A stretch of DNA of 64,000 nt from a virus: IMG/VR virus record IMGVR_UViG_3300034220_000029, positions 526-64,525 of that record, one strand, 5' to 3'. A model generated the notes under the pieces. It was not told where the DNA came from and searched no databases. It saw nothing but the letters and a program-made list of their open reading frames with translations. A program made the translations under genes and the position numbers. This document shows, piece after piece, positions 3 through 55,097 of the stretch (the first letter of the stretch is position 1; every line of letters starts with the position of its first letter).

Positions 3-893
3 GTGCTGCTCAATGCCGTGGAGCCGGAGGTGAAGGCCCTGCGCGTGTCGGGGGTCACGTTCCTCTGGGCCGAAACCTATGTCAAAGACTTAAAGCTGGT
101 GAAGAACCTGGCGCCAGGCTCCATCAGGAAGCGTGTGGGCGTGCTGGCGCGAATCCTGGACTGGCACTTCCGCCGCAGCGCCGTGAACGGCCAGGTCCCG
201 GGCAACGCCCTGCGCCTGCTGCCGATCGGCTACAGCCAGTACAACCAGATTGACGAGTCGGCCCTTGGCAAGGGCAAGGTGGCCAAGGTCGACGTCAAGC
301 GCGATCTCAGGCTGCCGCCCGAGGACGAGGCGCGGGTGAGGTTGGCGTTGTCGGGGGTCAAGCGTAAGGATCGGGAAAGGGGATTGACTCCTGACGCCGA
401 GTTCACTCTTCTTTTCGACTTGATCATCGACACGGGCCTCAGATTGTCCGAAGCATACCGTCTCAGGATCGCTCAAATCGACTTCGCCATGGGTGTCATA
501 GCGGTGGAAGGTTCCAAGGGCGCCAGGGGGCGCCTGAAGCCTCGTACGGTGCCGATGAAAAAAGAGCTGCGGGAGAAGCTGAAGAAATGGTGCACCGACC
601 GCGTCGGCCTCGTGTTTTCGTTCTGGGACGGCACGAAGGAGGGCAGGGCACGGGCTACGTCGAAGCTGTCGGTGCGCTTTGGCAACCTGTTCGATTACGC
701 CGGGGTCGAGAGACTCACGGAGCATGACTTGCGGCACGAGGCTTGCTGCCGGTGGGTCACGCTCCGTGGTTCTGACGGGAGATGGGTGTTTTCAGATACG
801 GAGATTTGCAAGATCATGGGGTGGACCAGCGCCGACATGATGCTTCGGTACGCCAGCCTCCGCGGGGAGGACCTGGCGAACCGCTTGCTCTAG
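3..893 (+). CDS. int: Tyrosine recombinase/integrase (5' truncated by window edge)
   Basis: Catalytic motifs DTGLRLSE (R), KGARG (K), HDLRHE (HxxR), MGW and MLRYA (Y). Confidence 0.93.
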   Translation: MLLNAVEPEVKALRVSGVTFLWAETYVKDLKLVKNLAPGSIRKRVGVLARILDWHFRRSAVNGQVPGNALRLLPIGYSQYNQIDESALGKGKVAKVDVKRDLRLPPEDEARVRLALSGVKRKDRERGLTPDAEFTLLFDLIIDTGLRLSEAYRLRIAQIDFAMGVIAVEGSKGARGRLKPRTVPMKKELREKLKKWCTDRVGLVFSFWDGTKEGRARATSKLSVRFGNLFDYAGVERLTEHDLRHEACCRWVTLRGSDGRWVFSDTEICKIMGWTSADMMLRYASLRGEDLANRLL

Positions 894-1042
894 TGTCCCC
901 TGGCCTGCATGAACAGGCCGATGTTGCCAATCGCGTAACCCCAGAACGCGATGCCCAGGCCGGTCTGGTGTTTGACGAAGACCTGGTCATACCCGATGTA
1001 GGCATAGGCCACGCCGATGATAGCGATCAACTCAGCGCTCAT
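890..1042 (-). CDS. Small membrane protein (50 aa)
   Basis: Manual translation MSAELIAIIGVAYAYIGYDQVFVKHQTGLGIAFWGYAIGNIGLFMQARGH; start overlaps upstream stop; stop overlaps integrase stop. Confidence 0.7.
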   Translation of the reverse strand: MSAELIAIIGVAYAYIGYDQVFVKHQTGLGIAFWGYAIGNIGLFMQARGH

Positions 1043-1449
1043 GGCCACGTCCCTTCAGACGTGAAGCACTTCAGCAGGATCGCGTCGTCGACGGTGACCG
1101 TGATCATGGGCTGGGCCATGCCGTCGAAGCTGTCGAGCGCGAGGGTGGCCAAGGCCCTGAGCCCATCAGTCCGCTCGAGATAGCGGCTGCCTCTGGCCTC
1201 GACGCGCTGCCACGCCGACCACTCCCCCCAGCCACTGGGCTGAGACTTGAGAAACACCCGGGCCTGCAGATCGTTCGGCCGACTCTGCCCACGCTTGACC
1301 GTCCCCCACCAGTGGCGCTTCGGCTTCCAGTCGCGGATGTATTGCTGGACGAGTTCCTCCCGCTCACGGATGATGCGCCCCTCGCGGGCAGCTTGACGCG
1401 CGTCGAGCTGCTCAAGCACCTGGTAGGCAGGAACCTGGGCGGTGCTCAC
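1039..1449 (-). CDS. Hypothetical protein (136 aa)
   Basis: ORF coupled by 4-nt start/stop overlaps on both sides. Confidence 0.75.
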   Translation of the reverse strand: MSTAQVPAYQVLEQLDARQAAREGRIIREREELVQQYIRDWKPKRHWWGTVKRGQSRPNDLQARVFLKSQPSGWGEWSAWQRVEARGSRYLERTDGLRALATLALDSFDGMAQPMITVTVDDAILLKCFTSEGTWP

Positions 1450-1787
1450 GCGTTACCCCCGACAGCGCTGGTGGCTGTGAGATTGTCCAGGTTCGGCCGC
1501 GGCTGCCGCTTGCGGCCTGAGTGCTTTGGCGCCTCGATGGTGGTAGAGACAAGCACGCCGCCCGGTGCCGGCGGTGTGCCAGTCCCTGAGCGCCGAACAG
1601 CCGCCTGCAGAAGCGCCAGCTCGTTCAGGCGGGCGATGACAGCGCTGCGTGGGAATATCCAGGGCTCGCCAAGCTTGAGGCCTGGGATGTTGCCGGAGCG
1701 AGCGTGCTCCTCGATGGTTCTGGCCGTGCACTTGCAGAGCACTGCCAGGTCCTCGCTGACGAGGATTTCATTTTGTGTGTCGTTCAT
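1446..1787 (-). CDS. Excisionase-like winged-HTH DNA-binding protein
   Basis: EDLAVLCKCTARTIEEHARSGNIPGLKLGEPWIF matches the Xis/HTH_17 pattern; near integrase. Confidence 0.8.
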   Translation of the reverse strand: MNDTQNEILVSEDLAVLCKCTARTIEEHARSGNIPGLKLGEPWIFPRSAVIARLNELALLQAAVRRSGTGTPPAPGGVLVSTTIEAPKHSGRKRQPRPNLDNLTATSAVGGNA

Positions 1788-5906: not shown

Positions 5907-8039
5907 TTACAGCTGGATCAGGTGGTCGGCAACAGACTGGCTCACCTCCTCGTGCGTCACCAGCAGGATTTGCTGGAAGGAGCACTGAGCAAGGAAGCCG
6001 AGCATGTTGTCGGTGCGGTCGTGATCCATGGCAGCTGCTGGCTCGTCAAGGATCAGGAACGGGGCGGCCGGCAGGAACGTCCGGACCAGGGCAACCCGGA
6101 TGGACAGGCCCAGGGCGTCGAGCGTGGAGCCGCTCATCGAGGTGACCGAGTGCCCGTCGACCTTGAAGCCGTCGGATTCTTTGGTCACCTTGGAAGCGGT
6201 GCCGCGGATGTCGCTGAAGTAGCTGCTGACGGCTGTCAGGACGATGTTCCACAGCTTGTCTGCGATCAGAGGCTTGCACTGGCGCACCCGCTTGAGCAGG
6301 GCGTTGTTGAACTCAAGCGTCTCCAGATCGCGTTCGCGCTGGGCCAGAGCCTCGGTGCAGTCGGCCACAGCCGCCACAGCCCGGTCGTAGGAGGCCTGCT
6401 GGTCCTTCAGGAACCGCTCAGCATCGCTCAGGGCGGTCACGGCGGCTGTGTGGGCTGCCCTGGCACGCTCTGCAGCGCCGCGGGCCGCTGTGAGGGTGTC
6501 CTGGGCGTCCTGCAGGGTTACTTCCGGCAGGGTCAGCAGGGCGTCCTGTGCATTGCTGTCCTCTTCCTGAGCCACCAGCAGCTGGGCCTGAAGGCCTTCG
6601 AGGCGCACCACGTCAGCGTCATAGGCACGCTGGGAGGCCTGCAGCGCCTCGATCTGGCGCTTCAGGGCCGCCGTATCGACCACCGCGCCAACCACTGGGC
6701 CCTTCCAGCGCAGCACAGGCGGCAGCTCGCCGTCGGCCAGCTCGCAGTAGTCAGGGTGCTGGTCCAGCACCTTCAGGGCGCCCGTTGAGGCGTTGCGGAT
6801 GGCCCGCATGGCAACGAGGTCCTGCTGCACCGTAGCGATGCAGGTCTGCTGCTCCGCCCGATCAGCAGTCGCGGCGTCGAGCGCGGTCTGAGTCTCGGCA
6901 TTTTTGGCCGCGACCTCTGGCACGCCGCTAAAGTCCTTGCCGCAGAAGGTGCAGCTGCCGTGCGTCAGCGTCTGCTTGAGCAGCCGGATGTCGCCGTCAA
7001 GGCGCGCAGCCCGGGCCTGCGTCACGGTCACGAGGGTGTCGAGCGCGCCGATCTCCGTGTCGAGCGCTTCGAGCGTGCCCTCGTAGGTGGCGCTGTCAGC
7101 GACCCGCGCAGCCGTGTAGGGCCCGACTTTTGCGAAGGCGGCGGCAATCGCGATGCCGTTGCCGGCGTCGGCGATCTGCCGCTGCAGGGCCTCGACCTGG
7201 CCAGCGACGTTGTCGGGGGCGACACGGGTGCCGAGATTGCTGATCTTCTCCCGCAGCGCCAGCACAGCGCCTGCCGTGCGGGCAGCGTTGCGGATGGCGT
7301 TGTCCCGCTGCACCACGCGCTCGCGGGCCTCGGCGTGAGCTTCCTGGGCCTTCTGCTCGTCGGCTGTGAAGCGGTCCACGTCGAGCACTACCGACTGCAG
7401 CGAGAGCTTGGCCGAGTCGATGCGCGCTGCGGCAGCGTCTGCATCGAACGGGACGGCGTCTGCCTTGGCGCGCTCCAGCAGCTCCTGCGCAGCCTTGAGG
7501 GTCAGCTCGGCGGAGCCGGTGTTGCCAAGGGTCAGCTTCTCCTGCATCAGCTCAATCAGCCGGTCGATCTGGTCGAACTCGGCAAGCTTCTCGATCAGCG
7601 CGGTCGTCTCCTTGGCGCCAGACTCGAGGGCCCCGCGGATTTCGTTCTGGTTGGACAGGGTCAGGCGGGCGGCGGCGCCAGCGTCGACCTTGAGCAGGCG
7701 GGAAATGAATGCGGTGCACTCGTTCTGCCCAGTCACGATGCCGCCGTCATAGTTGATCTCGGCGCCAGACTTGCCGCGCTTGATCGTGTAGACGACGCTG
7801 TCGATGACGACCTCCAGCTCGACCTTCAGCGAGCCGACGGCCTCGCCCCAGGTCACGCAGTCTTCGAGCGCATCGCGGATTGCCTTCACGCCGAACAGGG
7901 CGTAGGAGATTGCTTCTAGCAGCGTGGACTTGCCCTGCTCGTTGAGGGCGCGGATGGCTGTCATGCCGGCGCCGAACGTGACGCTGAGGTCACGGTGGCG
8001 GCGGAAGTTTGTCAGTGTGATTTTGTTAAGCATTGGCAT
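5907..8039 (-). CDS. sbcC: SbcC/Rad50-like SMC ATPase
   Basis: Walker A NEQGKST, coiled coil with CTFCG zinc hook, signature MSGS, Walker B LILDEP, H-loop LVTH. Confidence 0.92.
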   Translation of the reverse strand: MPMLNKITLTNFRRHRDLSVTFGAGMTAIRALNEQGKSTLLEAISYALFGVKAIRDALEDCVTWGEAVGSLKVELEVVIDSVVYTIKRGKSGAEINYDGGIVTGQNECTAFISRLLKVDAGAAARLTLSNQNEIRGALESGAKETTALIEKLAEFDQIDRLIELMQEKLTLGNTGSAELTLKAAQELLERAKADAVPFDADAAAARIDSAKLSLQSVVLDVDRFTADEQKAQEAHAEARERVVQRDNAIRNAARTAGAVLALREKISNLGTRVAPDNVAGQVEALQRQIADAGNGIAIAAAFAKVGPYTAARVADSATYEGTLEALDTEIGALDTLVTVTQARAARLDGDIRLLKQTLTHGSCTFCGKDFSGVPEVAAKNAETQTALDAATADRAEQQTCIATVQQDLVAMRAIRNASTGALKVLDQHPDYCELADGELPPVLRWKGPVVGAVVDTAALKRQIEALQASQRAYDADVVRLEGLQAQLLVAQEEDSNAQDALLTLPEVTLQDAQDTLTAARGAAERARAAHTAAVTALSDAERFLKDQQASYDRAVAAVADCTEALAQRERDLETLEFNNALLKRVRQCKPLIADKLWNIVLTAVSSYFSDIRGTASKVTKESDGFKVDGHSVTSMSGSTLDALGLSIRVALVRTFLPAAPFLILDEPAAAMDHDRTDNMLGFLAQCSFQQILLVTHEEVSQSVADHLIQL

Positions 8040-8718
8040 CCTTCAGGGTGTGGCGTCGGAACGCGGCTGTGGCGACCGGGACCAGCGGCTCGATGAGCTG
8101 CAGCATGGCCTCGGCGTAGACACGAATTTCGTACTGGCTGTGGCTATGCAGGCGCAGCTGTAGGAACTTCATCAGGTTGTGCAGATTCACGGTGGCGAAC
8201 ATATGGCTGTAGGTGCCGACCGGCAGCACGCTGCGAGCAAGCTCCCGTGGCACGCCTTCGGCCAGCATCTCGTGGTAAACGAGGAACGCCGACTCGCACG
8301 CACCTGCGATTACCTTCTGCCAGACCCCAGCATCCGCATGCTGCTCGTGCGTGCGCATCTGCTTGTTAGAGTCGCTCTGCGTCGTGATCTGGTCCAGCTC
8401 GGGCACGTAGAACTCTTCTGGCAGCTCGGCGTAGCGGGCGGAGATTTCGTTGAATCCCCAGGTGCGGTGACGATGCCACTGACGGAACACGAAGATCGGA
8501 GCCTTGACCTCGAAGGTGAACGACACGGCCTCGAAGGGGGAGGTGTGGTGGTTCTTGACGAGGTAGTCGATCAGCTTGGCGTCCTTGCCCTCGTCATCGC
8601 CTGTGCGCCACTCGGCGTTGTAGGAGACGCGAGCGTTGCGAACGATGGAGAGGTCGGACCCCATGTGATCGATGAGCCGGATCAGCCCGTGGTTGAGAAC
8701 TTTAATTGCTTCGGTCAT
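8026..8718 (-). CDS. thyX: Flavin-dependent thymidylate synthase
   Basis: NARVSY, HHTSPFE, RQWHRHRTWGFNEISARY, ARSVLP, HSQYEIR. Confidence 0.95.
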   Translation of the reverse strand: MTEAIKVLNHGLIRLIDHMGSDLSIVRNARVSYNAEWRTGDDEGKDAKLIDYLVKNHHTSPFEAVSFTFEVKAPIFVFRQWHRHRTWGFNEISARYAELPEEFYVPELDQITTQSDSNKQMRTHEQHADAGVWQKVIAGACESAFLVYHEMLAEGVPRELARSVLPVGTYSHMFATVNLHNLMKFLQLRLHSHSQYEIRVYAEAMLQLIEPLVPVATAAFRRHTLKDANA

Positions 8719-8870
8719 TTGCTGGCCTTCTCGATTAGTTTTTGTTGTAGTTGGAGTTCGGCGGGGGTCCTGAATTGCCAGAGGTGGGTGTCGATTCCGT
8801 GCAGGGTGACCACCACTTCGCACACGACGAGGACGGCGCACAGCAGCCAGAAGGCTGCCCACTCGTTCAC
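8715..8870 (-). CDS. Small membrane protein (51 aa)
   Basis: Manual translation VNEWAAFWLLCAVLVVCEVVVTLHG...; 4-nt overlaps on both sides. Confidence 0.65.
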   Translation of the reverse strand: MNEWAAFWLLCAVLVVCEVVVTLHGIDTHLWQFRTPAELQLQQKLIEKASK

Positions 8871-9982
8871 GTCGCCGCCTCTGGCGTTGAGTACAGCGCC
8901 TGGACCGCTGCACGTTGCTTGGGGTCGACAAGCATCTCCAGCAACATCTCGATGACGTTGACGGAGCGGATGTCCTCAATCGATTCGGCAAGTTCGTCGA
9001 CGCCTTCAAGCTTCTCCGCCTGCACCGCGTTGGTGATGACGAATGACTGGCTGCGCTGGCGGAAGGCGGCGATCGCTTTGATGGCGGCAGCGGACTCGGC
9101 GCTGTTGGCGGTGCCTTCGACGCGGATGAAGCCGCGGCCTTCCTCTTCAGTGGCGCCGAGATCGCGCCAATCGATCTTCTCGAACCAGCCGTCGGCAGCG
9201 TCAGGCCTCCACGTTTCGATGAACTCGAGCTTTTCAGTCTCGGGGTCATTGGTGTGGTTGATCACCAGCGCGCGCTTCGTGCCGTTCTTCTGGCCGTCGC
9301 CGTGCGAAAGGCAGTCAGCGATCGAGGTGGGGAACTGGTTGCCCACGATCACGACTGCGCCGCCCAGCACCTCGCGGCCCTGGTGCTCGTGGCCGAAGAT
9401 CATGGTGATGCCCTTGGCCTTCAGGGCCTTGGCCTGGTCCCGCGAGAGGTTCAACGAGTGGTCAGATGCGCAGGCAAAGATGTTGTCGAAATTGCAATGC
9501 AGCAGCAGGTACTTCGTGCTCTCGGGGACCCTGCCAAGCTCGTACTCGAAGAGGTCCTGGTTGGCGACGTGCGGCAGCACGTAGGTCTCAGCGTCCAGAG
9601 CCTGCGCGCCTGAGATCAGCTGGAAGCGCCCGGGGTGCTTCATGGCCAGGATCATTCCGATGAAGGCGACGGTGCCAAGGCGGGAGGAGTCCTTGGACAA
9701 GTCGTGATTGCCCAGCGCCCAAACCAGCTCGATGCCGGGGTTGGCCATCAGGAAGTTGTCGGTGTCTTCATAGACCCGCAGGGCGTGGAGCAGGGGAATG
9801 TCATAGACGTCGGTCAGGTCGCCGTTGACCACCACACGCTCGCAGCCGTTCTGCGGCGCGAGGGCCAGCAGCTTGGCATGCTGTTCGTGGCCCCAGTCGC
9901 GCAACGCTGCTGCCGAGGAGATGGTCGTTCCGCCTGTCCGCTGCACACCCAGGTGCAGGTCATTGATCACAAGTGTTTTCAC
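8867..9982 (-). CDS. sbcD: SbcD/Mre11-like metallophosphoesterase nuclease
   Basis: INDLHLG, NGDLTD, LGNHD, FGHEH motifs; GTG start. Confidence 0.9.
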   Translation of the reverse strand: MKTLVINDLHLGVQRTGGTTISSAAALRDWGHEQHAKLLALAPQNGCERVVVNGDLTDVYDIPLLHALRVYEDTDNFLMANPGIELVWALGNHDLSKDSSRLGTVAFIGMILAMKHPGRFQLISGAQALDAETYVLPHVANQDLFEYELGRVPESTKYLLLHCNFDNIFACASDHSLNLSRDQAKALKAKGITMIFGHEHQGREVLGGAVVIVGNQFPTSIADCLSHGDGQKNGTKRALVINHTNDPETEKLEFIETWRPDAADGWFEKIDWRDLGATEEEGRGFIRVEGTANSAESAAAIKAIAAFRQRSQSFVITNAVQAEKLEGVDELAESIEDIRSVNVIEMLLEMLVDPKQRAAVQALYSTPEAAT

Positions 9983-10220
9983 GTTTTTTCCTTTGTTCAA
10001 TTCCGCGTTTGGTGGCCTCGGAGATGGCCTTTCGTTTCGCCTCGCCCTCATCCGCAGCAAGCTTCACCAGCTCTGCCCGGGGGCGTTTGCGCGTCTCTTG
10101 GCAGGGGGTGCACTGCATCCGCTTGCTGCCGGTGGCTGGGTGGAGCACCACCTTGAAGCCCTCGTCAGTTTTGAAGCAGCGGCAGTAGGGGCAGAAGCGC
10201 TCCTTGACCGCCAGCGTCAT
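9960..10220 (-). CDS. Small zinc-finger protein
   Basis: CPYC...CTPC followed by basic helix. Confidence 0.7.
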   Translation of the reverse strand: MTLAVKERFCPYCRCFKTDEGFKVVLHPATGSKRMQCTPCQETRKRPRAELVKLAADEGEAKRKAISEATKRGIEQRKKRENTCDQ

Positions 10221-10714
10221 CGGATCACCTGCCCGGTGGCGGCGGTTAGGGCTGCAAGGGCGGTGGCGTGCAGCGGGACCTTGCTCAAGTCCCACGAGCC
10301 CCCGACAGCGTTGTCGGCAAGCAGGAGGGCAAGGGGTAGGCCACGCCACAGGTTCTCCGTGGAGTGGTAGACCAGCACGCAGCAGACGCCGCCGCAGTTG
10401 GCACGCTTGCGGAGCCGGGCCAGCTGTGTCACACGCTTGCGCTCAAGGCGGAAGGCATGCTTCGTTTCTTTGACCTCGATCAAGCCGTGGAAGGTTAGGG
10501 TCGTGTCCCCGCGGGGCCCACAGTCCTCGACCTTGCAGAAGAACTCGAAGTCCGCCGCTGCAGCCTTGATGGTGCGGCCGGCAGCCTTGGAGTCGACCAT
10601 CCGGTTGAACTCGTGGTGCGGGTGCTGCGCCCAGTCGGTGAGCGCCCTCTGGGTGGCCTTCTCGGCGACCTCTCCGCGATCAGCGAAGACGTTGATCTTT
10701 TTGAAGTGGGTCAT
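10217..10714 (-). CDS. RecU-like Holliday junction resolvase (PD-(D/E)xK nuclease)
   Basis: RGEVAE, ADFEF, LIEVKETK, GGVCCVLV. Confidence 0.75.
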   Translation of the reverse strand: MTHFKKINVFADRGEVAEKATQRALTDWAQHPHHEFNRMVDSKAAGRTIKAAAADFEFFCKVEDCGPRGDTTLTFHGLIEVKETKHAFRLERKRVTQLARLRKRANCGGVCCVLVYHSTENLWRGLPLALLLADNAVGGSWDLSKVPLHATALAALTAATGQVIR

Positions 10715-11004
10715 GCCGGTGCCCCCTGACGGGAGTTGCCGCGGCCTGGCCCAGAGGGTTTGCAGGCTAGCGCTGCACCGATGTCGCGGTCCTTCTGGGC
10801 TGCACGGGTGCAACCGCAGGAACGGCTCTGGCCGCCCACCAGGTAGTCATGGCGGATGGCGCGGGTTGTGCCGCAGTCGCACTGACAGCGCCAGCTCTTT
10901 TTGCTGGCGCCAGGCGCGGCGGAGATGATTGTGAGTTTGCCTAGCTTTACGCCGGGGGCAGGGCGCGGCGGAACGTACGCCGGCCGCGAGAGCTTGTCGC
11001 TCAT
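10711..11004 (-). CDS. Small Cys-rich zinc-binding protein
   Basis: WRCQCDCG...L.GG.SRSCGC motif common in phage HNH/AP2-associated domains. Confidence 0.75.
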   Translation of the reverse strand: MSDKLSRPAYVPPRPAPGVKLGKLTIISAAPGASKKSWRCQCDCGTTRAIRHDYLVGGQSRSCGCTRAAQKDRDIGAALACKPSGPGRGNSRQGAPA

Positions 11005-11043
11005 GTGGCACCACTTTCTTATTATTTTTATTGGGCGCGGAAA

Positions 11044-11080
11044 CCGACAACGCTTCGCTCGTTGGCTTAGTCGTTGTCGG
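11044..11080. repeat. Inverted pair of the CCGACAACG motif, 19-nt spacer
   Basis: CCGACAACG 11044-11052 and CGTTGTCGG 11072-11080, intergenic just after the polA stop. Confidence 0.85.
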
Positions 11081-11088
11081 GATTGAAA

Positions 11089-18183: not shown

Positions 18184-18194
18184 ATTGAGTTTTC

Positions 18195-18221: not shown

Positions 18222-18223
18222 AC

Positions 18224-36864: not shown

Positions 36865-36890
36865 CGGTCGTCCTTCATGTTGTCTCCGTG

Positions 36891-37409: not shown

Positions 37410-37421
37410 ATCAACTTCCTT

Positions 37422-39249: not shown

Positions 39250-39282
39250 GTTGAACTCCGTTGTTGCCGCAAAGCGCGGCGG

Positions 39283-41854: not shown

Positions 41855-41865
41855 GTCAGCTCCAG

Positions 41866-42467: not shown

Positions 42468-42547
42468 TTGGACTCCTAAAACAATAGCAACAAGGTGTTG
42501 CGGGTAAAGGGCTGGGCCCTCTCCAGTACATCCGGTGCACTGGGGAG

Positions 42548-42567
42548 GGCACCCCCGAAGGGGTGCC
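42548..42567 (-). terminator. 8-bp C(UUCG)G hairpin in non-coding structured region
   Basis: GGCACCCC-TTCG-GGGGTGCC on minus strand; no U-tract. Confidence 0.5.
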
Positions 42568-44530: not shown

Positions 44531-44636
44531 TTTGAACTCCGAAAATGTGAGCAATTCGCTCGGGTTTGCCTCTGAAGAAGCAAGTGAAATATACCTTTAG
44601 CGTTACAACTTGTTGCAGGTTTCCTTTGTGACTTAA

Positions 44637-44891
44637 TTACACCGGGCGGTGTGCTTCTTTATTGATAGCTGCCTGTGCCCGTGCGACAAGGGCTCCAGTG
44701 TCACCGCGGGTATATACCACCAGTGGTTTTTCAAACACAGTGGGCATTACCTGCGCGTAGATGGCGACGTTGTCGGGGCAGTCCTCATTGCCGTCGATCT
44801 CGAACGAGGCGAAGACCGGCGGGTCAAGCCGGCGCAGCGCCGTGCTGCGCAGCCAGGCCACGTCCTCACGGTCATTGAGGAACTGGATCAT
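44637..44891 (-). CDS. Hypothetical protein
   Basis: ATG overlaps upstream stop. Confidence 0.7.
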   Translation of the reverse strand: MIQFLNDREDVAWLRSTALRRLDPPVFASFEIDGNEDCPDNVAIYAQVMPTVFEKPLVVYTRGDTGALVARAQAAINKEAHRPV

Positions 44892-45151
44892 GCTGGCGCC
44901 CGCTTCTTGATGTAGTAGCCAAAGCCTGTCACCCAGGTGATGTCGAGTGGAATCTTGTGGTGCACTGCGTGCTCCATCAGGACCCAAACCGTGCTGCCGG
45001 AGGAGGAGTGCGTCGAGTGCCCGAATTGCTCGAACAAATCGATCAGGGTGCGAGCTTGAGCCCGCGTCACCGTCCGAGAGACGAGACCAAATGCAGACGT
45101 TGTCGGGTTGAGTTTGATGCGGCCGTCCCCGCTGAACATGCCGTAGTCCAT
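44888..45151 (-). CDS. Hypothetical protein
   Basis: Coupled ORF. Confidence 0.7.
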   Translation of the reverse strand: MDYGMFSGDGRIKLNPTTSAFGLVSRTVTRAQARTLIDLFEQFGHSTHSSSGSTVWVLMEHAVHHKIPLDITWVTGFGYYIKKRAPA

Positions 45152-45615
45152 CACATCTTCCCCAGCAGCTCGTCTTCGATGGCCTGGCGCCGGGCCTCCA
45201 TCTCCTCCTCGATCCGGGTCCTCAGTACCTGCCGGGTCGACTCGTGGAACATGCTCGCCACCGACTGCACCACCAGTGGGTGCATCCACCACTCACCGGC
45301 GAAGGTGTAGGTGGAGCGCTTGGTGGTGCGCTCACCCCACAGGTTGTCCCCGTTCCAGACGGTGAGCTCAAGTAGCCCCGTGTCCTGCCGCAGGCACAGG
45401 TCGGTGCACTTGTCGTAGGTGCTGGTCGAGCTCTTTTCCTCGAAGGGGACGGGCGTCGCCCTGTAGTTGTCGTGGCTCTCGCCCTTGACAACCCTGAGCT
45501 GCCCGGTACGCACCGCTTCACGCAGCGGGCCCACCAACTTGTGGTTGTAGTCACTGCAGTGCACGTCGTGGCCCCAGAGCTCGAACTTGCGCTTGAGGGT
45601 GTTGACCTCGTTCAT
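45151..45615 (-). CDS. Hypothetical protein
   Basis: Coupled ORF, 154 aa. Confidence 0.75.
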   Translation of the reverse strand: MNEVNTLKRKFELWGHDVHCSDYNHKLVGPLREAVRTGQLRVVKGESHDNYRATPVPFEEKSSTSTYDKCTDLCLRQDTGLLELTVWNGDNLWGERTTKRSTYTFAGEWWMHPLVVQSVASMFHESTRQVLRTRIEEEMEARRQAIEDELLGKM

Positions 45616-46025
45616 GCTGGCGCTCCCGGTGGGTTGTAGATCAGGCCCCTCAACTCAGCGAGGGCTTGCATGCGCGCCTCGAAGCGGGTGAGGAAGTCTC
45701 CGCTGCCGGAGAAGCTGTCGTGGGCCCGCTGCATATCGCAGAGCAGGTCCAGCGCTGCGTTGCCTTCAATCCCCGCGGCCTTCAGTGCCGCCTCGAACCT
45801 GTTCCTGGTTAGGGACTCGGGGCGCAGGTGCATCCACACCGTCGTGCCGTCACCCTGCTCGTCGAAGACTGGGTCGTAGGCGTTGTCGGGGATGAGGCCG
45901 CCGACAATGCACTTGTCACCGTTCGGTGCCCGGTACATGCAGGCGCCGTCTTCGTCATGAGAGGCGCGGCCCTGCGTCCTGATGTGGTTCAGGCCTTCGT
46001 CGAAGATTTGCTGTAGCGTTTTCAT
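45612..46025 (-). CDS. Conserved phage hypothetical protein
   Basis: QQIFD...QGRAS...CMYR...KCIVGGLIPD...QRAHD pattern. Confidence 0.8.
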   Translation of the reverse strand: MKTLQQIFDEGLNHIRTQGRASHDEDGACMYRAPNGDKCIVGGLIPDNAYDPVFDEQGDGTTVWMHLRPESLTRNRFEAALKAAGIEGNAALDLLCDMQRAHDSFSGSGDFLTRFEARMQALAELRGLIYNPPGAPA

Positions 46026-46969
46026 TCCTCGTCCCCTATGGCTTTGCGAATCTCAACTGGCACATGGTCGCCGCGGTAAACGGCGTCGCAGACGGCTTCG
46101 GTCGTAGCGGCGACGCTCAGGCCCTCTGGGACCTTGACCTCGAAGCGGGTGACGCTGCTGCAGGCGTTGCCGGGAGCCTGCGAATCGATCGTGAAGCGCG
46201 TCTCAGCCTCTTCCTGAGTACGGAACCACATGACGTGCTCGTTGCGGGTCACGGGGCGCTCGATCACCACACCGTGCACCACCGAGGTCTTCTCCTTCGT
46301 GCCGGTGACGCGCTCGATGACCGAGTCGATACGCTCGGCAGACTTGTCGATGAAGGCACGCAGCTCGTCGAGCTTCTCGACAAGGTCGTTATGCTTGTTC
46401 ACGCACATGGCGATGTAGTCAACCTGGTTGCGGTTGCGCGGCCCGACGGTCGACAAGATCGGCTCACCGTCGCCGTCCACCAAGGCCCATCCGTGGCCGG
46501 TCGTTCTGATATGCACCGGCAGTGCGAACGGCGCAGCATCGAGCTCGGCCACAGGCTCAAGCACCCGCGGCATCAGCTCGTCAAACGTGGTGGGCAGCAC
46601 GCAGTAGCTGCTGTTGCCCCAACGCACAGCGCAATCGAAGTCAAGGCCTGCAGCGCGCTCGATGAACGCCCCCGCCGTCTCGTTGTTGTCTAGCGCCTTG
46701 AAGCGCTTGCTGTAGTTGGCCAGAACGATGGTCATGCCCTCGACACGCTGGGCCAGCCCGATCACGTCCGCAACGTATTTCTCGCGCGGTGTCGGCTCGG
46801 CAGACTCATCAACCACCAGCACGAGGTCGCTGCTTGAGAAGCAGTGCTGCAGGCCCGCCCTGTCTCGCACCCGCGCCCAGTTGGCGGAGATTTTCGTGTA
46901 GAGGATGTGGGTCACGTTCGATTCAAACTCGTCATCCACCGCTATCGAGTCAAAGCGTACGGTTTTCAT
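46022..46969 (-). CDS. Multi-domain hypothetical protein (315 aa)
   Basis: Coupled ORF. Confidence 0.75.
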   Translation of the reverse strand: MKTVRFDSIAVDDEFESNVTHILYTKISANWARVRDRAGLQHCFSSSDLVLVVDESAEPTPREKYVADVIGLAQRVEGMTIVLANYSKRFKALDNNETAGAFIERAAGLDFDCAVRWGNSSYCVLPTTFDELMPRVLEPVAELDAAPFALPVHIRTTGHGWALVDGDGEPILSTVGPRNRNQVDYIAMCVNKHNDLVEKLDELRAFIDKSAERIDSVIERVTGTKEKTSVVHGVVIERPVTRNEHVMWFRTQEEAETRFTIDSQAPGNACSSVTRFEVKVPEGLSVAATTEAVCDAVYRGDHVPVEIRKAIGDEE

Positions 46970-47328
46970 GCTGGTGCCCTTTCGATGGCGGTGTCGAGCA
47001 CCAGCAGCACGTCGGCGTGCTTGGTGTCTTGGTGGTCGTTGAACTGGGTCATCAGCCAGGAGGGTGCAAACGCGGTGCCGGTGTCGTGTTTCCGGGTAGG
47101 AAACAACTCAAGCAGGATCGGCGCGACAGCCTCACGCACCTCAAGGGCCCTGCCGAAGTGCCCTTGCGTCGCGACGTCCACACCACCGAAGAAGCAATAG
47201 CAAACCGCGTCAGCCTCCAGGGACGACGTGGGCCCACCAAGCGCGTCCCGGCCGAAGGCGCCCTTGGTCCAGCGCTCCTTGTCAGCGAGGACCTCGCGTG
47301 TGGCGATCAGGTCAGATTTGAGTGTCAT
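46966..47328 (-). CDS. DUF6197-like protein
   Basis: WTKGAF...CYCFFG...FNDHQDTKHADVL (family name from memory). Confidence 0.75.
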   Translation of the reverse strand: MTLKSDLIATREVLADKERWTKGAFGRDALGGPTSSLEADAVCYCFFGGVDVATQGHFGRALEVREAVAPILLELFPTRKHDTGTAFAPSWLMTQFNDHQDTKHADVLLVLDTAIERAPA

Positions 47329-47717
47329 GCTGCCACCTCTTCCATCGTGACGGGCAGGGTGGCATTGACGGGGGTTTCAGCCGGCGCGTCCATGTCGATT
47401 TGAACCTCAGCCGCAAGGCGCAACGACCAGCCACCCTCGACAAGGGCATAGGCAAGCATCCGGCCGGTCGTGGCGTAGCGCTCACGCAGGGTGCGGGCCA
47501 CCTTGTACAGGGGGCCGAACTCGACTCGTGCGGGGCCGTCGTGGCCGAGCATGAAAGACTCGATGGTGGCGCGCAAACGCTGTGACAATGGGCTGCGCTC
47601 CAGTACCAGACGGTGTCGGTGGTACGGGCCAGACCCAGGTAGGGCAATGGCCACCATCAAGGTAAAATCGCCATCCCCGGGGATGGGGGACGTGGCTGTC
47701 GCTCTGACTTCGTTCAT
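47325..47717 (-). CDS. Hypothetical protein
   Basis: Hairpin + GGAG RBS. Confidence 0.75.
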   Translation of the reverse strand: MNEVRATATSPIPGDGDFTLMVAIALPGSGPYHRHRLVLERSPLSQRLRATIESFMLGHDGPARVEFGPLYKVARTLRERYATTGRMLAYALVEGGWSLRLAAEVQIDMDAPAETPVNATLPVTMEEVAA

Positions 47718-47825
47718 AGTCGGACTCCAAAAAGGTGCAACAAAGCGTTGCGGGGTGTGAGCGATTGTGCTCGGGTCTGTAGGACTGTGCTAACTATTTT
47801 TGTAGGACAGTCTTATTTTCGTGAA

Positions 47826-48314
47826 TTAGTTATCGGAACGCGGCTTGCTCCCCAAGCGGTTTGACCGGCAGGAACTCAAGAATCTGCGAGCCATCTGGAT
47901 CATGGGCAGCGAGACAAGGATTTGGCGGGCGCCCCGCACAGCGTTCAAGAAGGCGACCTTGTCTTCGAGGTAAACCGTGTCGTAGCTCCCGTTCCACGAC
48001 GGGTTCGCCACCAGCTTCATCGGCGGAGCGTCATCGAATCGCACGGTCACGATGCACTGCTGGCTGCAGTTAATCATGCCTTTGCTGACTGCGACGCTGA
48101 CCCCAGTGCCCCGCTGCATCCACCCGAGGCTCAGCACACCGTGCACGGGGCCGTCGAAGGGCGGCTTCAGGCTCAGGGTGTTGCTGCGGACGGTGGCGCC
48201 GTGCGACACCTCGTTCGTCATCCGGTCAGTTTTGGACACGAGAGTCCATTCAGCCTGTGCCGAGAAGCAGCACAGAGCGGCGATCAATGCGAGGGTACGG
48301 GGCAGGGTCTTCAT
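47826..48314 (-). CDS. Secreted protein, possibly frameshifted near C-terminus
   Basis: Signal peptide MKTLPRTLALIAALCCFSAQA; VRFDDAPP; GGAG RBS. Confidence 0.8.
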   Translation of the reverse strand: MKTLPRTLALIAALCCFSAQAEWTLVSKTDRMTNEVSHGATVRSNTLSLKPPFDGPVHGVLSLGWMQRGTGVSVAVSKGMINCSQQCIVTVRFDDAPPMKLVANPSWNGSYDTVYLEDKVAFLNAVRGARQILVSLPMIQMARRFLSSCRSNRLGSKPRSDN

Positions 48315-48378
48315 GGTGGCTCCAGTAAAAGTGGTCACTGAATGTACAGTCTGGCGCCAGCCCCGTATATGGACAAAT

Positions 48379-48594
48379 TTACAGTCCCTGGCCTTTCAGC
48401 TCGCGCACCTTGCGCAAACCAGACTTGGCCTGCTTCAGGGTTGCGTCGAACTCCTCAAGCGTCGCACGGTGCGATGAATCAAGGCCTGCAGCCTCCGCCA
48501 GTGCGGCGCGTGTGGCCAAGGTGTTGCGGTACATCCTGCTCAGCGCGCTCACTTCGGCGTTGGTCAGCGGTTTGAATTCGGGGTCGGTTCTCAT
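48379..48594 (-). CDS. Hypothetical protein
   Basis: Helical ORF. Confidence 0.65.
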   Translation of the reverse strand: MRTDPEFKPLTNAEVSALSRMYRNTLATRAALAEAAGLDSSHRATLEEFDATLKQAKSGLRKVRELKGQGL

Positions 48595-48595
48595 G

Positions 48596-48865
48596 TCAGT
48601 CCCCGACAACGTCTGAGCCTTGAACTGCGGCGAGATCAACCTTCACCTTGGCGTGAAGGCCCCGCATGCCGAGGGCGTGGCGCAGTTTGCTGGCTGCCTC
48701 AAGGGCATAGGCCCTGCTGCGGCCGTTCACGCCGCCCAGCAGGTCGTGGATGGCTTCGAGCCCGGCTCGCATGGCCACGGTGTCTCGGTCGGTGGCGGCG
48801 CGGGCCGCAATGTTGTCGACGAGCTGCCGGGCTACGGCAGCGCGCTCAATGTTTGGGTCAGTCAT
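48596..48865 (-). CDS. Hypothetical protein
   Basis: SD AGGA + ATG. Confidence 0.7.
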   Translation of the reverse strand: MTDPNIERAAVARQLVDNIAARAATDRDTVAMRAGLEAIHDLLGGVNGRSRAYALEAASKLRHALGMRGLHAKVKVDLAAVQGSDVVGD

Positions 48866-49085: not shown

Positions 49086-49256
49086 GGCGTGTCCTTCATG
49101 TTGGCGTTGTCGGGGCGTCGCGGGTATCGGCTGTGACCCAGGTGTGTCGCGTAGGCGAGGGGCACAGCGGGTGAGGGTGAGGGTGACAGGGGCGGTGACG
49201 TTGTCGGGGTTGTCGCCGGATGGCGACAACTTTGACGTTGTCGGGGTGCGTTTCAA

Positions 49257-49630
49257 ATGGGAAACGACCTTAGACCGTTGATTTCATTGAAGAATAAAAA
49301 TTCCTGATTTGCAAAATAGGGGTGCAGGGTAAAACGGCCTTTTTCATGAGAAAGTTACAAAGTACGTTTCACATTATGAAATGAAGTAAAAAAATAAAAG
49401 TGATTCCACCAGCTTCGGGGGACTTATATTTAACTACTCTTTTTTCTGTTTCTATTCAACAACTTGATCGCGTTTTTCTGCAAAAATGTGCCTCTTTTTT
49501 GAGCACAGCTGGATACTTGTCCAGTGGTTTTTGTCTGTTACAACTGTAACGATGCTATCAATTTTGACGTGAGTAAGCGCTAATTTAAGGCGTTTAATTG
49601 GGGACAGAGTAGCGATTTTGTTACAACTTG
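49257..49630. promoter_or_regulatory. AT-rich non-coding tract, candidate origin or packaging/control site
   Basis: Clearly lowest GC in window; no plausible ORF; flanked by oppositely oriented motif copies. Confidence 0.55.
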
Positions 49631-49687
49631 CGCTCCAGACCTGCCCCCGACAACGTCATGCACCAAATCAGTGCCAAAACTATGCAA

Positions 49688-49759
49688 ATTTCACATTGTG
49701 GAACGCCCAGGACCTGCCCCCGACAACGTCAAGCGCAGGAAAATTCCACAATGTGAAAT
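49688..49759. repeat. Perfect 16-bp inverted repeat enclosing one motif copy
   Basis: ATTTCACATTGTGGAA 49688-49703 and TTCCACAATGTGAAAT 49744-49759. Confidence 0.9.
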
Positions 49760-49792
49760 GTCGAGGGCCCAGCCCCCGACAACGTCACCGTC

Positions 49793-50044
49793 TCAGGCAA
49801 AGACGGCGGCCTGATTCCTGGCCGCCCAGTACGTGCGGCCTGCCAGAACGGGCGCTGGTGCCGGTTCTTGGTAGAAGTCAGCCACCAGCACTGGGTTATG
49901 CCCGTCCGTGGCGTACAGGCGCCCTGAGCAGGCCCTGGCGCGGCTTTCCGATCGAGCCCTGTTCTTGCTCAGTACACCGTAGCGGGTGAAGACAGCGCCG
50001 GGCATGGTGACGTTGTCGGGGCGCATGACGTAGTACAGCATCAT
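49793..50044 (-). CDS. Hypothetical protein
   Basis: ATG overlaps stop of upstream peptide. Confidence 0.7.
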   Translation of the reverse strand: MMLYYVMRPDNVTMPGAVFTRYGVLSKNRARSESRARACSGRLYATDGHNPVLVADFYQEPAPAPVLAGRTYWAARNQAAVFA

Positions 50045-50106
50045 GCACCCAGCAAGGCGGTCAGGGCTTCGTCGAGGACAGGCAGCTCAGGGGTGTAGTC
50101 GATCAT
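50041..50106 (-). CDS. 21-aa peptide MIDYTPELPVLDEALTALLGA
   Basis: Hairpin + GGAGTTCAAC-ATG; stop overlaps next ATG. Confidence 0.6.
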   Translation of the reverse strand: MIDYTPELPVLDEALTALLGA

Positions 50107-50968
50107 GTTGAACTCCAAATGAGGCGCAAATCGCGCCGGGTTGCGGGACAAGGCAAAGAGCAGGGTCCGTGTGCAGGGCCCTGTTATTTGCCCCCGACAA
50201 CGTCAATGCCTCTGGCGGCGGCGTTGTCGGGGACTCAGGTTTTAAACCGCGTCTCAAAGCGAGACGGTTGGCCGGCCAGTGCCGGGATTCCACAGTACGC
50301 GCCCTGTGTTATGGCGTTGCATATACCCTTGCGATCGGGTTCGTTATTCAGCTTATGCGACCACCTCCCGCCCCGTCGTTGTCGGGGTTTGCCGGAGTTG
50401 CTGCATATTCCTTTTTCAGGTTCAGCACGGCGCTGCAGAACAGCGCGCTACTCGTGGGGATGTGTCATCGCACCTGGCCATTGCTTTCGCGGGACCATGG
50501 GCTCAGCAGTGGTGTCTGCTGGTTGCGGGCTTTCACCGGCTAGGCCTCTGTGATGTGCATGGGTCAGTCGATCGGTCGGCCTGTTGTGAGTGACTTGGCC
50601 GCCGTCAATGCTGGTTCAGCATCACATAGCGTAGGGCTGCCACGGGTAGCCCGTCAGGGCCCGCAATGGTGGCAGCTTGGCAGTGCCTGCACAGCAAGCC
50701 CCGACAATGTGAGCGCCTTCGAGCGTGAATCCGGATGCTGCAACTGGTGCGGGCAAGGGGACAAACGCTGTCCAGGTGGGGGCCATAGAGGCCGCCACGG
50801 GGCAGGGGCGCCGACGGTACTAGCGCTATGCGCGCTGGCGTTGTCGGGGATACTGTGCAAACTTTTAAGGGGCGGCCCGGGTAACGGATTCACCGGGCAT
50901 GGGCTTAGCGCCGATGCTGGGGGAAAGCGTTACCGTATCCCTTTCGGGGGGCGAGCAGTGCGATGACT

Positions 50969-51632: not shown

Positions 51633-51822
51633 CATTTATTAGGTCATAGTGTTGTATTTAAGGGAATGCAAGAATAAAAGAATAAATAAATGTAATGAGT
51701 TGTAACAACTGACGTATAGCCTTTATTGGGTCATTTTCGGGGCCTGGCCGTCCCTGGGCCCAAATCCGCGGCGGAAAAATTCTAGAAACTTTCTGACCTA
51801 ATAAATGTGTTCCATGTATAAT
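51633..51822. promoter_or_regulatory. Divergent promoter region with inverted TGACCTAATAAATG operators
   Basis: 14-bp exact inverted copies 51633-51646 and 51794-51807, 1-mismatch 12-mer at 51722-51733, TATAAT at 51817-51822. Confidence 0.7.
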
Positions 51823-51828
51823 CGGCGC

Positions 51829-52260
51829 ATGCCTAAAATTGCACGCCCTCGTCCAGAATACGAAGCCCTCGTCCAGCGCATTGCGCGCGGCGAGATCACG
51901 CGCCCCGAAGCGGCCACACTTGCCGCTTCCAGCACCGGTCTGAGCGCGAACACCTTCCTCAGCTGGCTGCGCAGCTCCGGCAGGGTGAAGGACTTGATCG
52001 ACCGACGCGGTACCGTTGGCCAGAACAGCATCCACGCCCACAAGGACCCCGACAAGGTCCTCGCCTACGAGAACGCCCTCAACGCGGTGATGGGCGGAGA
52101 CCTGACCATGGTCGCCGCGGCCAAGAAGTTCGACGTCTCGTACCGCTACCTGGTCAAAAAGGTCCACAAGGCGAAGGAAAACCTCGACAAGGCCCTCGTG
52201 GAGGAGCCGATCCCGAACCTGGAGCGGGCCATCTACGAGGCCTCGGCGGCCCACCTGTGA
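51829..52260 (+). CDS. Tandem-HTH DNA-binding protein, candidate repressor
   Basis: TRPEAATLAASSTGLSANTFLSWL and TMVAAAKKFDVSYRYLVKKV (psq-like HTH). Confidence 0.65.
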   Translation: MPKIARPRPEYEALVQRIARGEITRPEAATLAASSTGLSANTFLSWLRSSGRVKDLIDRRGTVGQNSIHAHKDPDKVLAYENALNAVMGGDLTMVAAAKKFDVSYRYLVKKVHKAKENLDKALVEEPIPNLERAIYEASAAHL

Positions 52261-52890: not shown

Positions 52891-52941
52891 TCCCAGTATG
52901 GTCCCGCTTCAGAACAACAAGAGCCGCTCAGCGGCCTGCCC

Positions 52942-53379
52942 ATGGATGATGTCCCCGATCTGCCAGTAGCCGCGTCCAACGCGGCGCCAGGCAAGAAGAC
53001 CAGCGTAGCGCAGTTCGACCTCACGGCGATGCCGGTGAACGAGCTGCTGTCGTTGCGTGCGCAGATTGAGGCGCGGCTGCCGGCCAAAGACCTCAAGGAC
53101 ATGGACATGGCGCGCGAGCTGGTGCTCCAGGTGCTGGTGCTGCAGCAGATGCAGCAGGTGGTGCTCGACGACGGCGACACGCCGGCCAACCAGAAGGCCC
53201 AGGTGGCCAACAGCCTCTCGGCCGCGCTGATCAACCTCGTGCGGCTCCAGACCGACGTCTACACGAGCGAGCGGCTCAAGCAAATCGAGCAGGCGCTGGA
53301 GGAGACGATCAACGGCCTCGATGAGCCCGTGCGCACGCTGTTCATGGACCGGTACGGTACCGCGCTGGGGGTCCTGTGA
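52942..53379 (+). CDS. Putative terminase small subunit
   Basis: Helical 145-aa ORF overlapping TerL start. Confidence 0.65.
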   Translation: MDDVPDLPVAASNAAPGKKTSVAQFDLTAMPVNELLSLRAQIEARLPAKDLKDMDMARELVLQVLVLQQMQQVVLDDGDTPANQKAQVANSLSAALINLVRLQTDVYTSERLKQIEQALEETINGLDEPVRTLFMDRYGTALGVL

Positions 53380-55097
53380 GCCTTGAGCTGGCGGACCAGC
53401 ATTACAAGCGCCTGCTGTCGAAGACGACGCGGCGCCTGTCCCGCGCCGACCTTGCCAAGTGGATCACCGACAACACGTACATCGGCGGCCGGCCGTTCTC
53501 GTTCAAGGACCACGAGTTTCAGGAAAAAATCCTGCAGGACACGAGCCAGGAGATCGTGATCATGAAGTCGGCCCAGCTGGGCCTGTCCGAGATGAGCCTG
53601 CGCATGGCGCTGGGCCTGGTGATGCTCATGCCGGGCAACTTCGCCATCGGCTACACGTTCCCGACAGCGTCCTTCGCGTCGCACTACTCGAAGACCCGGT
53701 TCGACCCCATCGTGCGCGGCTCGCCGAGCCTGCGCGCCGCGGTGCGGCTGACCGACCTCGACAACGCCGAGAGCAAGGCCTTCGGCCCCGGGCGCTTCAT
53801 CTTTTTCAAGGGCGCCGCGGTCGGCAACGCCGCCATTTCCGACTCGCTTGACCTGCTGATCCACGACGAGCTTGACTTCAGCGACCCCGACATCGTCGGC
53901 GACTACACCAGCCGCTTGATCCACTCGCCCTGGAAGATGAAAGTCAAGCTGTCCACGCCGACCTTCCCCGGCGGGCCGATCGACAGCGCGTTTGGCCAGT
54001 CCCGCAAGCACTTCAATTTCTGCCGGTGCCAGCACTGCAACACGCGGTTCATCCCGAATTTCTACGAGCACGTCAAGATTCCTGGCTGGGACAAGCACCT
54101 CGACGAGATCACGCGCGACAACCTGCACACCGTCAACTACGCCGCGGCGAAGCTGCTGTGCCCGAGCTGCTTCCAGGCGGTGGACCTGAACCCCGAGCAC
54201 CGCGAGTGGGTGTGCGAGAACCCGGAGGAGCCGCACATCGCCGCCGGGTACAAGGTCAGCCCGTTCGATGCCCCGAACGTCATCACGCTGTCCAACCTGA
54301 TCGAGGCGTCCACCAGCTACGCCAGCAAGGCGAAGTTCCGCCAGTTCTCCCTGGGCATTCCCGCGGCCGACGCCGACAGCGGCTTGACCGAGGAGGACCT
54401 TGAGCGGATCGGGGTGCAGATGGTGCAGAGCCCGTTCACGACGCACGTCATGGGGATTGACCTGGGCTTGACCTGCCACTTCATGGTGGGCAGCTTGACG
54501 CCGGAGGGCCAGCTCGTCGTGGTGCACTACGAGCGGGTACCGCTCAAGGCCTTCCGCGAGCGGTACACCGCCCTGAAGTCGCAGTACCGCATCTCGATCG
54601 TGGTGAGCGACATCCAGCCGTACACCGACCTGATCATGTCGATGAGCGCCATTGACCACAACCTCTTCGGCGCCAGGTACGTGACGCGCCAAGGCCTTGA
54701 GGTCTACGACGTGAAGGTGCAAGACCCCGACAACGACAACGCCATCGAGGGCGTCCGCGAGATCAGCGTCAACCGGAACGCCATCTTCGACAAGATCATG
54801 TCGGAAGTGCGCCCGGCCGATGGCGAGGCCCCGCGCGTGGTGATCAGGAAGCTGGAGGACTGGGAGCTCATCAAATCCCACATGACCGACATGAAGCGGG
54901 CCTCGGCGACCCTGCGCAACGGCGAGTTCACCAGCGTCTGGCAGAAGTCCAGCAAGGGCAACGACCACTACCACCACACGCTGGGCTACCTCTGGATCGC
55001 CGCCCAGCTGCGCGGGATCGCGATGGGCGGCATGGCCACCGGGATGCCTGGCGTCAGCACTTTCAAGATCAAGGGCTCCACGCCGGTCCGTAGGTAG
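53376..55097 (+). CDS. terL: Terminase large subunit, lambda GpA-like
   Basis: MKSAQLGLSE (GpA-type Walker A), LIHDELD, LSTPT, CQHC/CPSC, GIDLG nuclease, NDHY. Confidence 0.9.
   Translation: MSLELADQHYKRLLSKTTRRLSRADLAKWITDNTYIGGRPFSFKDHEFQEKILQDTSQEIVIMKSAQLGLSEMSLRMALGLVMLMPGNFAIGYTFPTASFASHYSKTRFDPIVRGSPSLRAAVRLTDLDNAESKAFGPGRFIFFKGAAVGNAAISDSLDLLIHDELDFSDPDIVGDYTSRLIHSPWKMKVKLSTPTFPGGPIDSAFGQSRKHFNFCRCQHCNTRFIPNFYEHVKIPGWDKHLDEITRDNLHTVNYAAAKLLCPSCFQAVDLNPEHREWVCENPEEPHIAAGYKVSPFDAPNVITLSNLIEASTSYASKAKFRQFSLGIPAADADSGLTEEDLERIGVQMVQSPFTTHVMGIDLGLTCHFMVGSLTPEGQLVVVHYERVPLKAFRERYTALKSQYRISIVVSDIQPYTDLIMSMSAIDHNLFGARYVTRQGLEVYDVKVQDPDNDNAIEGVREISVNRNAIFDKIMSEVRPADGEAPRVVIRKLEDWELIKSHMTDMKRASATLRNGEFTSVWQKSSKGNDHYHHTLGYLWIAAQLRGIAMGGMATGMPGVSTFKIKGSTPVRR

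Follow-up and report, generated by a model that had tools for sequence, protein, structure and literature searches.

A 13-bp asymmetric word under selection in the early arm and hub of a temperate phage family

Introduction

Dispersed operator networks are known from a few model phages. Among them, the stoperators of the Cluster A mycobacteriophages combine an asymmetric 13-bp word with more than 20 dispersed copies, mostly oriented along transcription, in temperate genomes, and a two-domain monomer could read such a site (L5 gp71, Bxb1, and the TipsytheTRex repressor; PMC9283540). The element described here shares all of these traits. It is the 11-mer CCCCGACAACG, together with the 13-bp word built around it, and it was found in a window of 64,000 nucleotides, bases 526-64525 of the 84,353-bp virus record IMGVR_UViG_3300034220_000029, a genome from a biocrust metagenome that is labelled G000 throughout. 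An earlier note on this DNA had proposed the comparison with stoperators.

Other systems also come close. The C1 protein of phages P1 and P7, with its dispersed and asymmetric 17-bp operators, likewise uses one asymmetric site at many places in a temperate genome, where it controls several units. In the T1-like phages of proteobacteria (T1, Stevie), an asymmetric 22-bp repeat of unknown function is present in 16-20 copies along the direction of transcription (PMC4319613), but these repeats are intergenic and the phages virulent, whereas the word of G000, found in a temperate phage, has fewer bases, lies mainly within genes and forms a cluster in a hub.

As detailed below, the word is strongly selected at the DNA level. 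The reading that we favour, tentatively and with rather less than even confidence, is a dispersed operator-like network in which CCCCGACAACG-t-C-r would be the cis docking site of a DNA binder specific to this phage family. Three of its traits have not been described for the model phages: the selected word is mostly intragenic, with a proteome measurably reshaped by it; it stays constant over relatives of about 50% protein identity with different immunity switches; and the site positions turn over from lineage to lineage. The word is a clean natural test of a DNA-binding requirement competing with coding sequence, and it points to a regulator or an origin system in a prophage family widespread in soil and freshwater. 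One member of the family resides in the cultured Variovorax paradoxus ISL-3, which makes the question open to bench work.

The word and its selection at the DNA level

All 27 copies of CCCCGACAACG that had been listed for the window were recovered by pattern search, each exact in position and strand, compared with about 0.03 (never more than 1) when dinucleotides are shuffled. The whole 84,353-bp record holds 30 copies against about 0.03-0.3 expected, and CCCCGACAACG is by a wide margin the most repeated 11-mer of G000. The consensus of 89 sites extends it to CCCCGACAACG-t-C-r, a word of 13 bp, asymmetric and non-palindromic, with a C at position 13 in 84 of the 89. The nine one-mismatch copies reported earlier are also real, and are CCCCGACAGCG variants. 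In the literature, the word was not found described as a phage element.

Selection at the DNA level had been suspected from the use of two reading frames, and codon-preserving nulls bear this out. In the genes of G000, whose calls are rough and were made crudely from third-position GC, there are 18 sense and 4 antisense copies. Synonymous shuffling within genes, with the proteins kept, yields 3.18 +/- 1.34 sense copies (maximum 8) and 0.05 antisense copies, and shuffling of codon order yields 0.13 and 0.01; the observed copies exceed every version. Under an independent-codon model, 0.068 copies are expected in the early arm. The tripeptide Pro-Asp-Asn occurs 14 times in G000 against 2.3 expected, and this six-fold excess implies that the DNA-level requirement has changed protein sequences. 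Pro-Asp-Asn, read as CCC-GAC-AAC, is indeed the commonest frame (41 of the 76 copies embedded in open reading frames, ORFs) and Pro-Thr-Thr with ACA the next, as had been reported, but several frames are used, not two alone. Unfavourable frames are occupied as well: ACA makes up 9.8% of Thr codons, and in the early arm of G000 the Pro-Thr-Thr frame is used by 4 copies where 0.003 would be expected.

Distribution between the hub and the two arms

G000 is an integrated temperate phage, with a tyrosine integrase and att-like repeats at its ends. Of these 60-bp direct repeats, 95% identical, one lies at genome positions 5-64, ahead of the window's start, and the other in the ~70 bases that close the record; they are likely the attL and attR of the integrated prophage. 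The main parts of the genome, in window positions, are as follows.

3-893, + strand: tyrosine integrase gene, at the record start.
Left 49 kb, leftward: early arm, with Pol I, primase, SNF2 helicase, ligase, SbcCD-like proteins and exonuclease, and also dNMP kinase, a MazG-like protein and a C5-methylase.
From 51.8 kb, rightward: late arm, opening with a tandem helix-turn-helix (HTH) gene, TerS, TerL and portal.

The copies of the word are given below, the sign being the strand on which CCCCGACAACG reads 5' to 3'.

346..356, - strand: copy within the tyrosine integrase gene, antisense to it.
7208, 15282, 18165, 22711, 26424, 28832, 29256, 32110, 34888, 38773, 44768 and 45881, - strand: early-arm copies, sense.
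16110 and 48601, + strand: antisense copies of the early arm (7208..48611; 14 copies in all); 48601 adjoins the hub, lies just outside it, and is counted in the early arm.
49105, 49199, 49236, 50011, 50222, 50377 and 50839, - strand: exact copies of the hub (49105..50849).
49645, 49718, 49774 and 50192, + strand: exact copies of the hub.
50699, + strand: hub copy with one mismatch.
54725..54735, + strand: copy within the TerL gene, the sole late-arm copy of the window.
80261, 82101 and 82149 (window-equivalent positions): three late-arm copies beyond the window.
1457 and 10300, + strand: CCCCGACAGCG variants, one mismatch.
12507, 20435, 30134, 31117, 33691, 34678 and 36415, - strand: CCCCGACAGCG variants, one mismatch, all seven sense and in the early arm.

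The spread had been called genome-wide, which overstates it, since 12 copies fall within the 1.8 kb of the hub (49105-50849). By region, G000 has 12 copies in the hub, 14 in the early arm and 4 in the late arm (30 in total); the count of a single late-arm copy given earlier thus becomes four over the whole record. The late arms of the relatives G002, G003 and G004 contain 1, 0 and 0. In five genomes taken together, the hubs carry 1.44 copies per kb, compared with 0.24 per kb for the early arms and 0.04 per kb for the late arms. Late arms are near background, and the pattern is one of early arm plus hub, not of a coating of the whole genome.

The dispersed copies stand at about one per 3.5 kb of early arm, mostly within genes, among them those for the SbcC-like protein, dNMP kinase, exonuclease, SNF2 helicase, ligase and C5-methylase. 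In G000, 10 or more of the 14 are coding, and in seven genomes 58 of 70 dispersed copies lie within confident ORFs. Short intergenic gaps are not their main location, unlike in the Cluster A phages, where the sites occupy such gaps.

Could the word simply arise from composition, from codon usage or from a peptide that recurs? It is true that CCC-GAC-AAC is made of preferred codons and that this frame holds more of the ORF-embedded copies than all others. However, the observed counts are 6 to 140 times those of the codon-aware nulls, about half of the copies are in other frames or in non-coding DNA, twelve sit in a largely non-coding hub, and the late arms, which have the same codon usage, are at background. 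The codon nulls, the regional densities and the codon-model comparison already refute this explanation, to which we give virtually no probability.

Orientation of the copies

As noted earlier, 12 of the 14 copies in the leftward arm run in the sense direction, the exceptions being 16110 and 48601. The early-arm copies of the family number 44 sense and 5 antisense, and the confidently coding copies 52 and 6. An independent-codon model with an orientation-blind requirement predicts a sense:antisense ratio of 8.7-19:1, because CCC-GAC-AAC consists of preferred codons while its complement needs disfavoured ones. The 52:6 ratio matches this prediction, and antisense copies are therefore as enriched over expectation as sense copies (6 observed against about 0.04 expected). 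A general caution follows for high-GC phages, in which the sense bias of an intragenic motif can stem from codon usage alone and not from transcriptional polarity. A hint of real polarity comes only from the dispersed copies that are probably non-coding (n=12, from crude gene calls), of which 11 are sense and 1 is antisense.

These ratios also bear on the idea that the word acts in RNA, as an element of early transcripts for processive antitermination, processing or decay, or by antisense pairing with an RNA derived from the hub. Copies are mostly sense and limited to the early arm, the motif is not followed by any protein in its distribution, both orientations occur in the hub within leftward-transcribed DNA, and the common A-to-G variant would preserve G:U pairing. 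On the other side, codon usage explains the sense bias, the enrichment is just as strong for antisense as for sense copies, and the frequent variants CCCCGTCAACG and CCCCGACAAGG of G003 and G004 are transversions, which would break pairing. There is moreover no Rfam or tRNA match and no structure conserved across lineages. An RNA-level role is accordingly considered very unlikely.

Relatives, family restriction and host

Relatives were recovered by TerL searches and by motif-pair scans. No nucleotide match to G000 exists among 50,697 phage records, and its best protein matches, at about 30% identity (31% at most), belong to 80-88-kb siphophages of Vibrio and Pseudomonas. CCCCGACAACG is the top 11-mer in G002 (18 copies), G003 (10), G004 (15) and G015 (16), while in G016 its 13 copies are outranked by tandem simple repeats only; the TerL proteins of these five genomes are 48-63% identical to that of the window. 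In all, the word heads the 11-mers of seven or more related genomes. A prophage of Variovorax paradoxus ISL-3 (G005) has 16 copies over two contigs, and eleven further contigs of the family have sense copies or hubs. The hosts here are proteobacteria, unlike those of the Cluster A phages. The distant relatives G007-G009 (TerL 36-38% identical) lack the word, as does an inner branch formed by G012, G013 and G014. In G012 and G013 no replacement motif was found, the top words being local tandem repeats.

At the hub position of G012 (61.2-62.3 kb, locus L100:1200-2300) there is a 1.1-kb GC-rich array of about 17 one-directional AAGCCGCCGC-like units, perhaps coding sequence of low complexity, perhaps an array of repeats that replaces the word.

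In a set of 2.9 million viral contigs, all true clusters of the word adjoin a TerL of this phage family, and the remaining hits with two copies represent coding or tandem repeats. One of these, G001, is an unrelated prophage in which the pair belongs to a coding repeat.

Site positions, as opposed to the word itself, turn over between lineages. G000 and G002 have none in common, and several are common to G003, G004 and the Variovorax genome, which are close relatives. The sole position common to distant lineages lies in the exonuclease gene (17467-18183, - strand), where G000, G003, G004 and the Variovorax prophage all have the site at codons 3-7, with an identical offset (Met-Ser-x-Pro-Asp-Asn-Val-Arg). 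Since positions differ between lineages, selection acts on having sites, with positional turnover through repeated gain.

Is the word read by a factor of the host, which the phages exploit or evade by accumulating it? Such a factor might be a protein of the nucleoid or of host defence, or the word might serve host recombination nucleases as a signal of the Chi type. It is identical over phages whose proteins are about 50% identical, its distribution is matched by none of the phage proteins, and its lack in the G012, G013 and G014 lineage could be explained by a change of host. The chromosome of Variovorax paradoxus ISL-3, the check that had been proposed for this point, is at background, however: outside the prophage, its 6.6-Mb genome has 11 copies against 4 for a reversed control, mostly as ordinary in-frame Pro-Asp-Asn codons. 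The word is therefore a feature of the phage and not of the host. The restriction of true clusters to a single phage family also speaks against a host factor, and the confinement to the early arm would be left unexplained. Known Chi sites measure 5-8 nt, which 13 bases far exceed. Overall, a host reader seems highly improbable.

The immunity switch and the candidate readers

The switch and two candidate readers are located as follows.

51616-51804: divergent immunity-type switch, with inverted operators at 51630-51653 and 51787-51810.
51805..52260, + strand: tandem-HTH protein of 151 amino acids with an HTH_psq hit, in the repressor position; a weak candidate reader.
14532..14888, - strand: basic winged-helix protein of 119 amino acids, its gene immediately upstream of that for Pol I, with which it overlaps (translationally coupled).

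The switch operators are an inverted TGACCTAATAAATG pair that brackets the switch, with a degenerate third copy between. They occur in none of 13 related genomes, and the immunity specificity appears private to G000. In the repressor position, G000, G002 and G012 encode tandem-HTH proteins, and G003 and G004 fusions of an HTH to an S24 peptidase. The HTH protein at 51805-52260 is an unlikely reader, because these switch regulators are only 15-28% identical to one another while the word is identical.

The same evidence bears on how far the stoperator comparison can be taken. In its strict form, the immunity repressor would bind the word as a monomer, halt RNA polymerase in an orientation-dependent way, and silence the early arm in the lysogen. 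What stands of the analogy is the asymmetric 13-bp word, its many copies and the temperate phage; to this may be added the tandem-HTH proteins in the repressor position, suited to an asymmetric site, with their S24-fused relatives, the precedent of a two-domain monomer on such a site (PMC9283540), and the 11:1 sense ratio of the probably non-coding dispersed copies. What is weakened or unsupported is the rest: the polarity is confounded by codon usage, which predicts the coding sense bias, the sites are intragenic, the late arms are uncovered, and the switch, which has its own private operator, is without copies at its promoters. In Cluster A, motifs co-vary with their repressors, whereas here an identical word accompanies unrelated switch regulators; and G012 has the same type of tandem-HTH protein without the motif. 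Unlike the Cluster A sites, the copies in this family are confined to the hub and early arm, with late arms near background. True stoperators are thus unlikely in this family.

Other proteins fared no better. The winged-helix family comprises 46 clusters at 50% identity among 1.8 billion representative proteins, and is always encoded directly upstream of, and overlapping, a Pol I gene, preceded in several relatives by a gene for a DksA/TraR-type zinc finger. Its helix-turn-helix is invariant, and its model (pLDDT 83) is PadR/Fur/ArsR-like (Foldseek E about 0.002-0.01). The protein is present in all the motif genomes found first and absent from G007-G009, but G012 and G014 carry the same recognition helix without the motif, and it is probably not the reader. 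The 83-amino-acid hub protein was rejected, being present in the motif-free G012 and absent from G003, G004 and G015, and so were proteins of 328 and 150 amino acids and an acidic one of 159, all of patchy distribution. None of the small hub proteins is conserved across lineages.

Architecture of the hub

Two features of the G000 hub are listed here.

49226..49626: AT-rich core of ~400 bp, minimum GC 0.31.
50192..50232: head-to-head inverted pair of copies with a 19-bp spacer.

The core is flanked by three copies per side, their CCCC/GGGG ends facing inward. G002 has the same layout, with copies at 14656 and 14679 (- strand), an AT-rich segment at 14701-15076, then copies at 15377, 15476 and 15553 (+ strand), and an AT-rich segment beside sites is also seen in G004 and in the Variovorax prophage. 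Spacings within the G000 hub are 94, 37, 73 and 56 bp; among the arrays of this layout, spacings of 73/56 and 99/77 bp occur. Neighbouring ORFs are small unknowns, and the primase is 28 kb away. Head-to-head pairs recur, and were found solely in contigs of this phage family.

Such a layout recalls origin iterons and the archaeal ORB elements, where mirrored asymmetric sites likewise lie on both sides of an AT-rich core. The main rival of a regulatory network is therefore that the hub is the phage origin, its mirrored initiator sites flanking an AT-rich unwinding element. Copies outside the hub would then serve to titrate the initiator, to handcuff it, or to influence forks that cross the early arm. 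The inward-pointing triplets around a core of low GC, repeated in G002, fit this idea. So do the phage's own primase, Pol I, ligase and exonuclease, the orientation-blind selection, which suits a double-stranded binding site without transcriptional polarity, and the winged-helix protein, which belongs to the replication module and is translationally coupled to Pol I. Yet the spacings are wide and irregular, not iteron-like, no initiator gene adjoins the copies, and 15-20 further copies dispersed over 48 kb of one arm would be unexpected for an origin. The replication proteins of G012, 58-64% identical, do without the motif. No DnaA-box-like element was noticed by eye, no systematic search having been made. 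An origin is possible, although on balance rather unlikely.

Several neighbouring elements were also observed in the hub. A non-coding block at 50222-50319 (wider 50150-51030) starts directly after the head-to-head pair; it is 77% identical in nucleotides to G002 over 103 nt, where proteins are only about 50% identical, and contains a hairpin with compensatory changes, without a match in Rfam. The block may encode a structured RNA of small size, or it may act as regulatory DNA. As a common factor of the motif-bearing phages, a conserved hub RNA was rejected, the block being common to G002 only. A near-palindrome, TTTCACATTATGAAA, is present in three copies, at 49367-49381 (in the AT-rich core), 49689-49703 and 49744-49758, two of which enclose the motif copy at 49718, and a palindrome GCTATCA-N4-GATAGC is found at 50969-51007, just downstream of the first early gene. 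Both are shared with G002 only, and they look like operators of other regulators.

A possible network of docking sites

The favoured reading, a dispersed operator-like network, builds on what is observed: the enrichment of the word, its selection at the DNA level, its conservation in relatives, the turnover of its positions, its restriction to one family and its absence as an enriched word from the host chromosome. That a protein binds the word, and what the binding does, we infer from the sequence. A single sequence-specific factor, particular to this temperate phage family, would dock on the predicted 13-bp sites. Its main place of action would be the hub between the early and late arms, with its mirrored arrays around the 400-bp AT-rich core, and the early-arm copies in replication and recombination genes would serve as auxiliary sites. 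The factor would most likely control early-arm transcription by occupying, looping or road-blocking the DNA, in a mode akin to the dispersed operators of phage P1 (C1 repressor) or mycobacteriophage L5, and it would probably be distinct from the repressor of the immunity switch. The network would differ from those of P1 and L5 also by its mostly intragenic sites and its limitation to hub and early arm.

Several points weigh against this reading. No binding protein emerged: in a presence/absence screen, no gene of G000 was found in all motif-bearing genomes and absent from the motif-free relatives. G012, complete, temperate and close (TerL 59-61% identical), has zero copies, even though its genes include those for the 83-amino-acid hub protein, for a switch protein of the tandem-HTH type and for the winged-helix protein. 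There is no motif copy in the switch (51616-51804), and none over the switch promoters. The sense bias in coding regions is fully explained by codon usage, and the polarity of a roadblock is unsupported there. Neither was a fixed -10/-35 partner found, nor any position-specific TANNNT, TTGAC or AT-rich signal within 60 nt on either side of the 89 sites. Finally, mirrored arrays around an AT-rich core suit a replication origin equally well. The operators of P1, by comparison, are located at promoters, whereas here the copies have no promoter partner and are mostly coding. On the same two grounds, the lack of a fixed-distance partner and the mostly intragenic position, a promoter element of the MotA-box or phage-RNAP type was rejected.

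A more speculative, and improbable, possibility is that the word is no classical repressor's operator, but the mark of a domain: a 13-bp tag frozen family-wide in coding sequence, which would label the early arm and the hub. Its reader could then be a new small DNA-binding fold, or an RNA from the opposite-strand copies of the hub, and might organise, compact or time the 48-kb early arm in the manner of matS/MatP. With MatP/matS, ParB/parS and the KorB sites of IncP, the word has in common that a site of the 13-bp class recurs over one part of a replicon and that its orientation seems not to matter. Dimers read those sites, however, and the sites are palindromes, whereas the word of G000 is asymmetric, and no homologue of ParB, KorB or MatP turned up in the genes scanned, about half of the G000 gene set.

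Neighbouring genes of the early arm

The primase of the early arm is probably a primase-helicase. Between window positions 5008 and 17470 are encoded the dNMP kinase, the MazG-like pyrophosphatase and the C5-cytosine methylase, the last with a long N-terminal extension; this set of nucleotide-metabolism and methylase genes may point to modified bases in the virion DNA.

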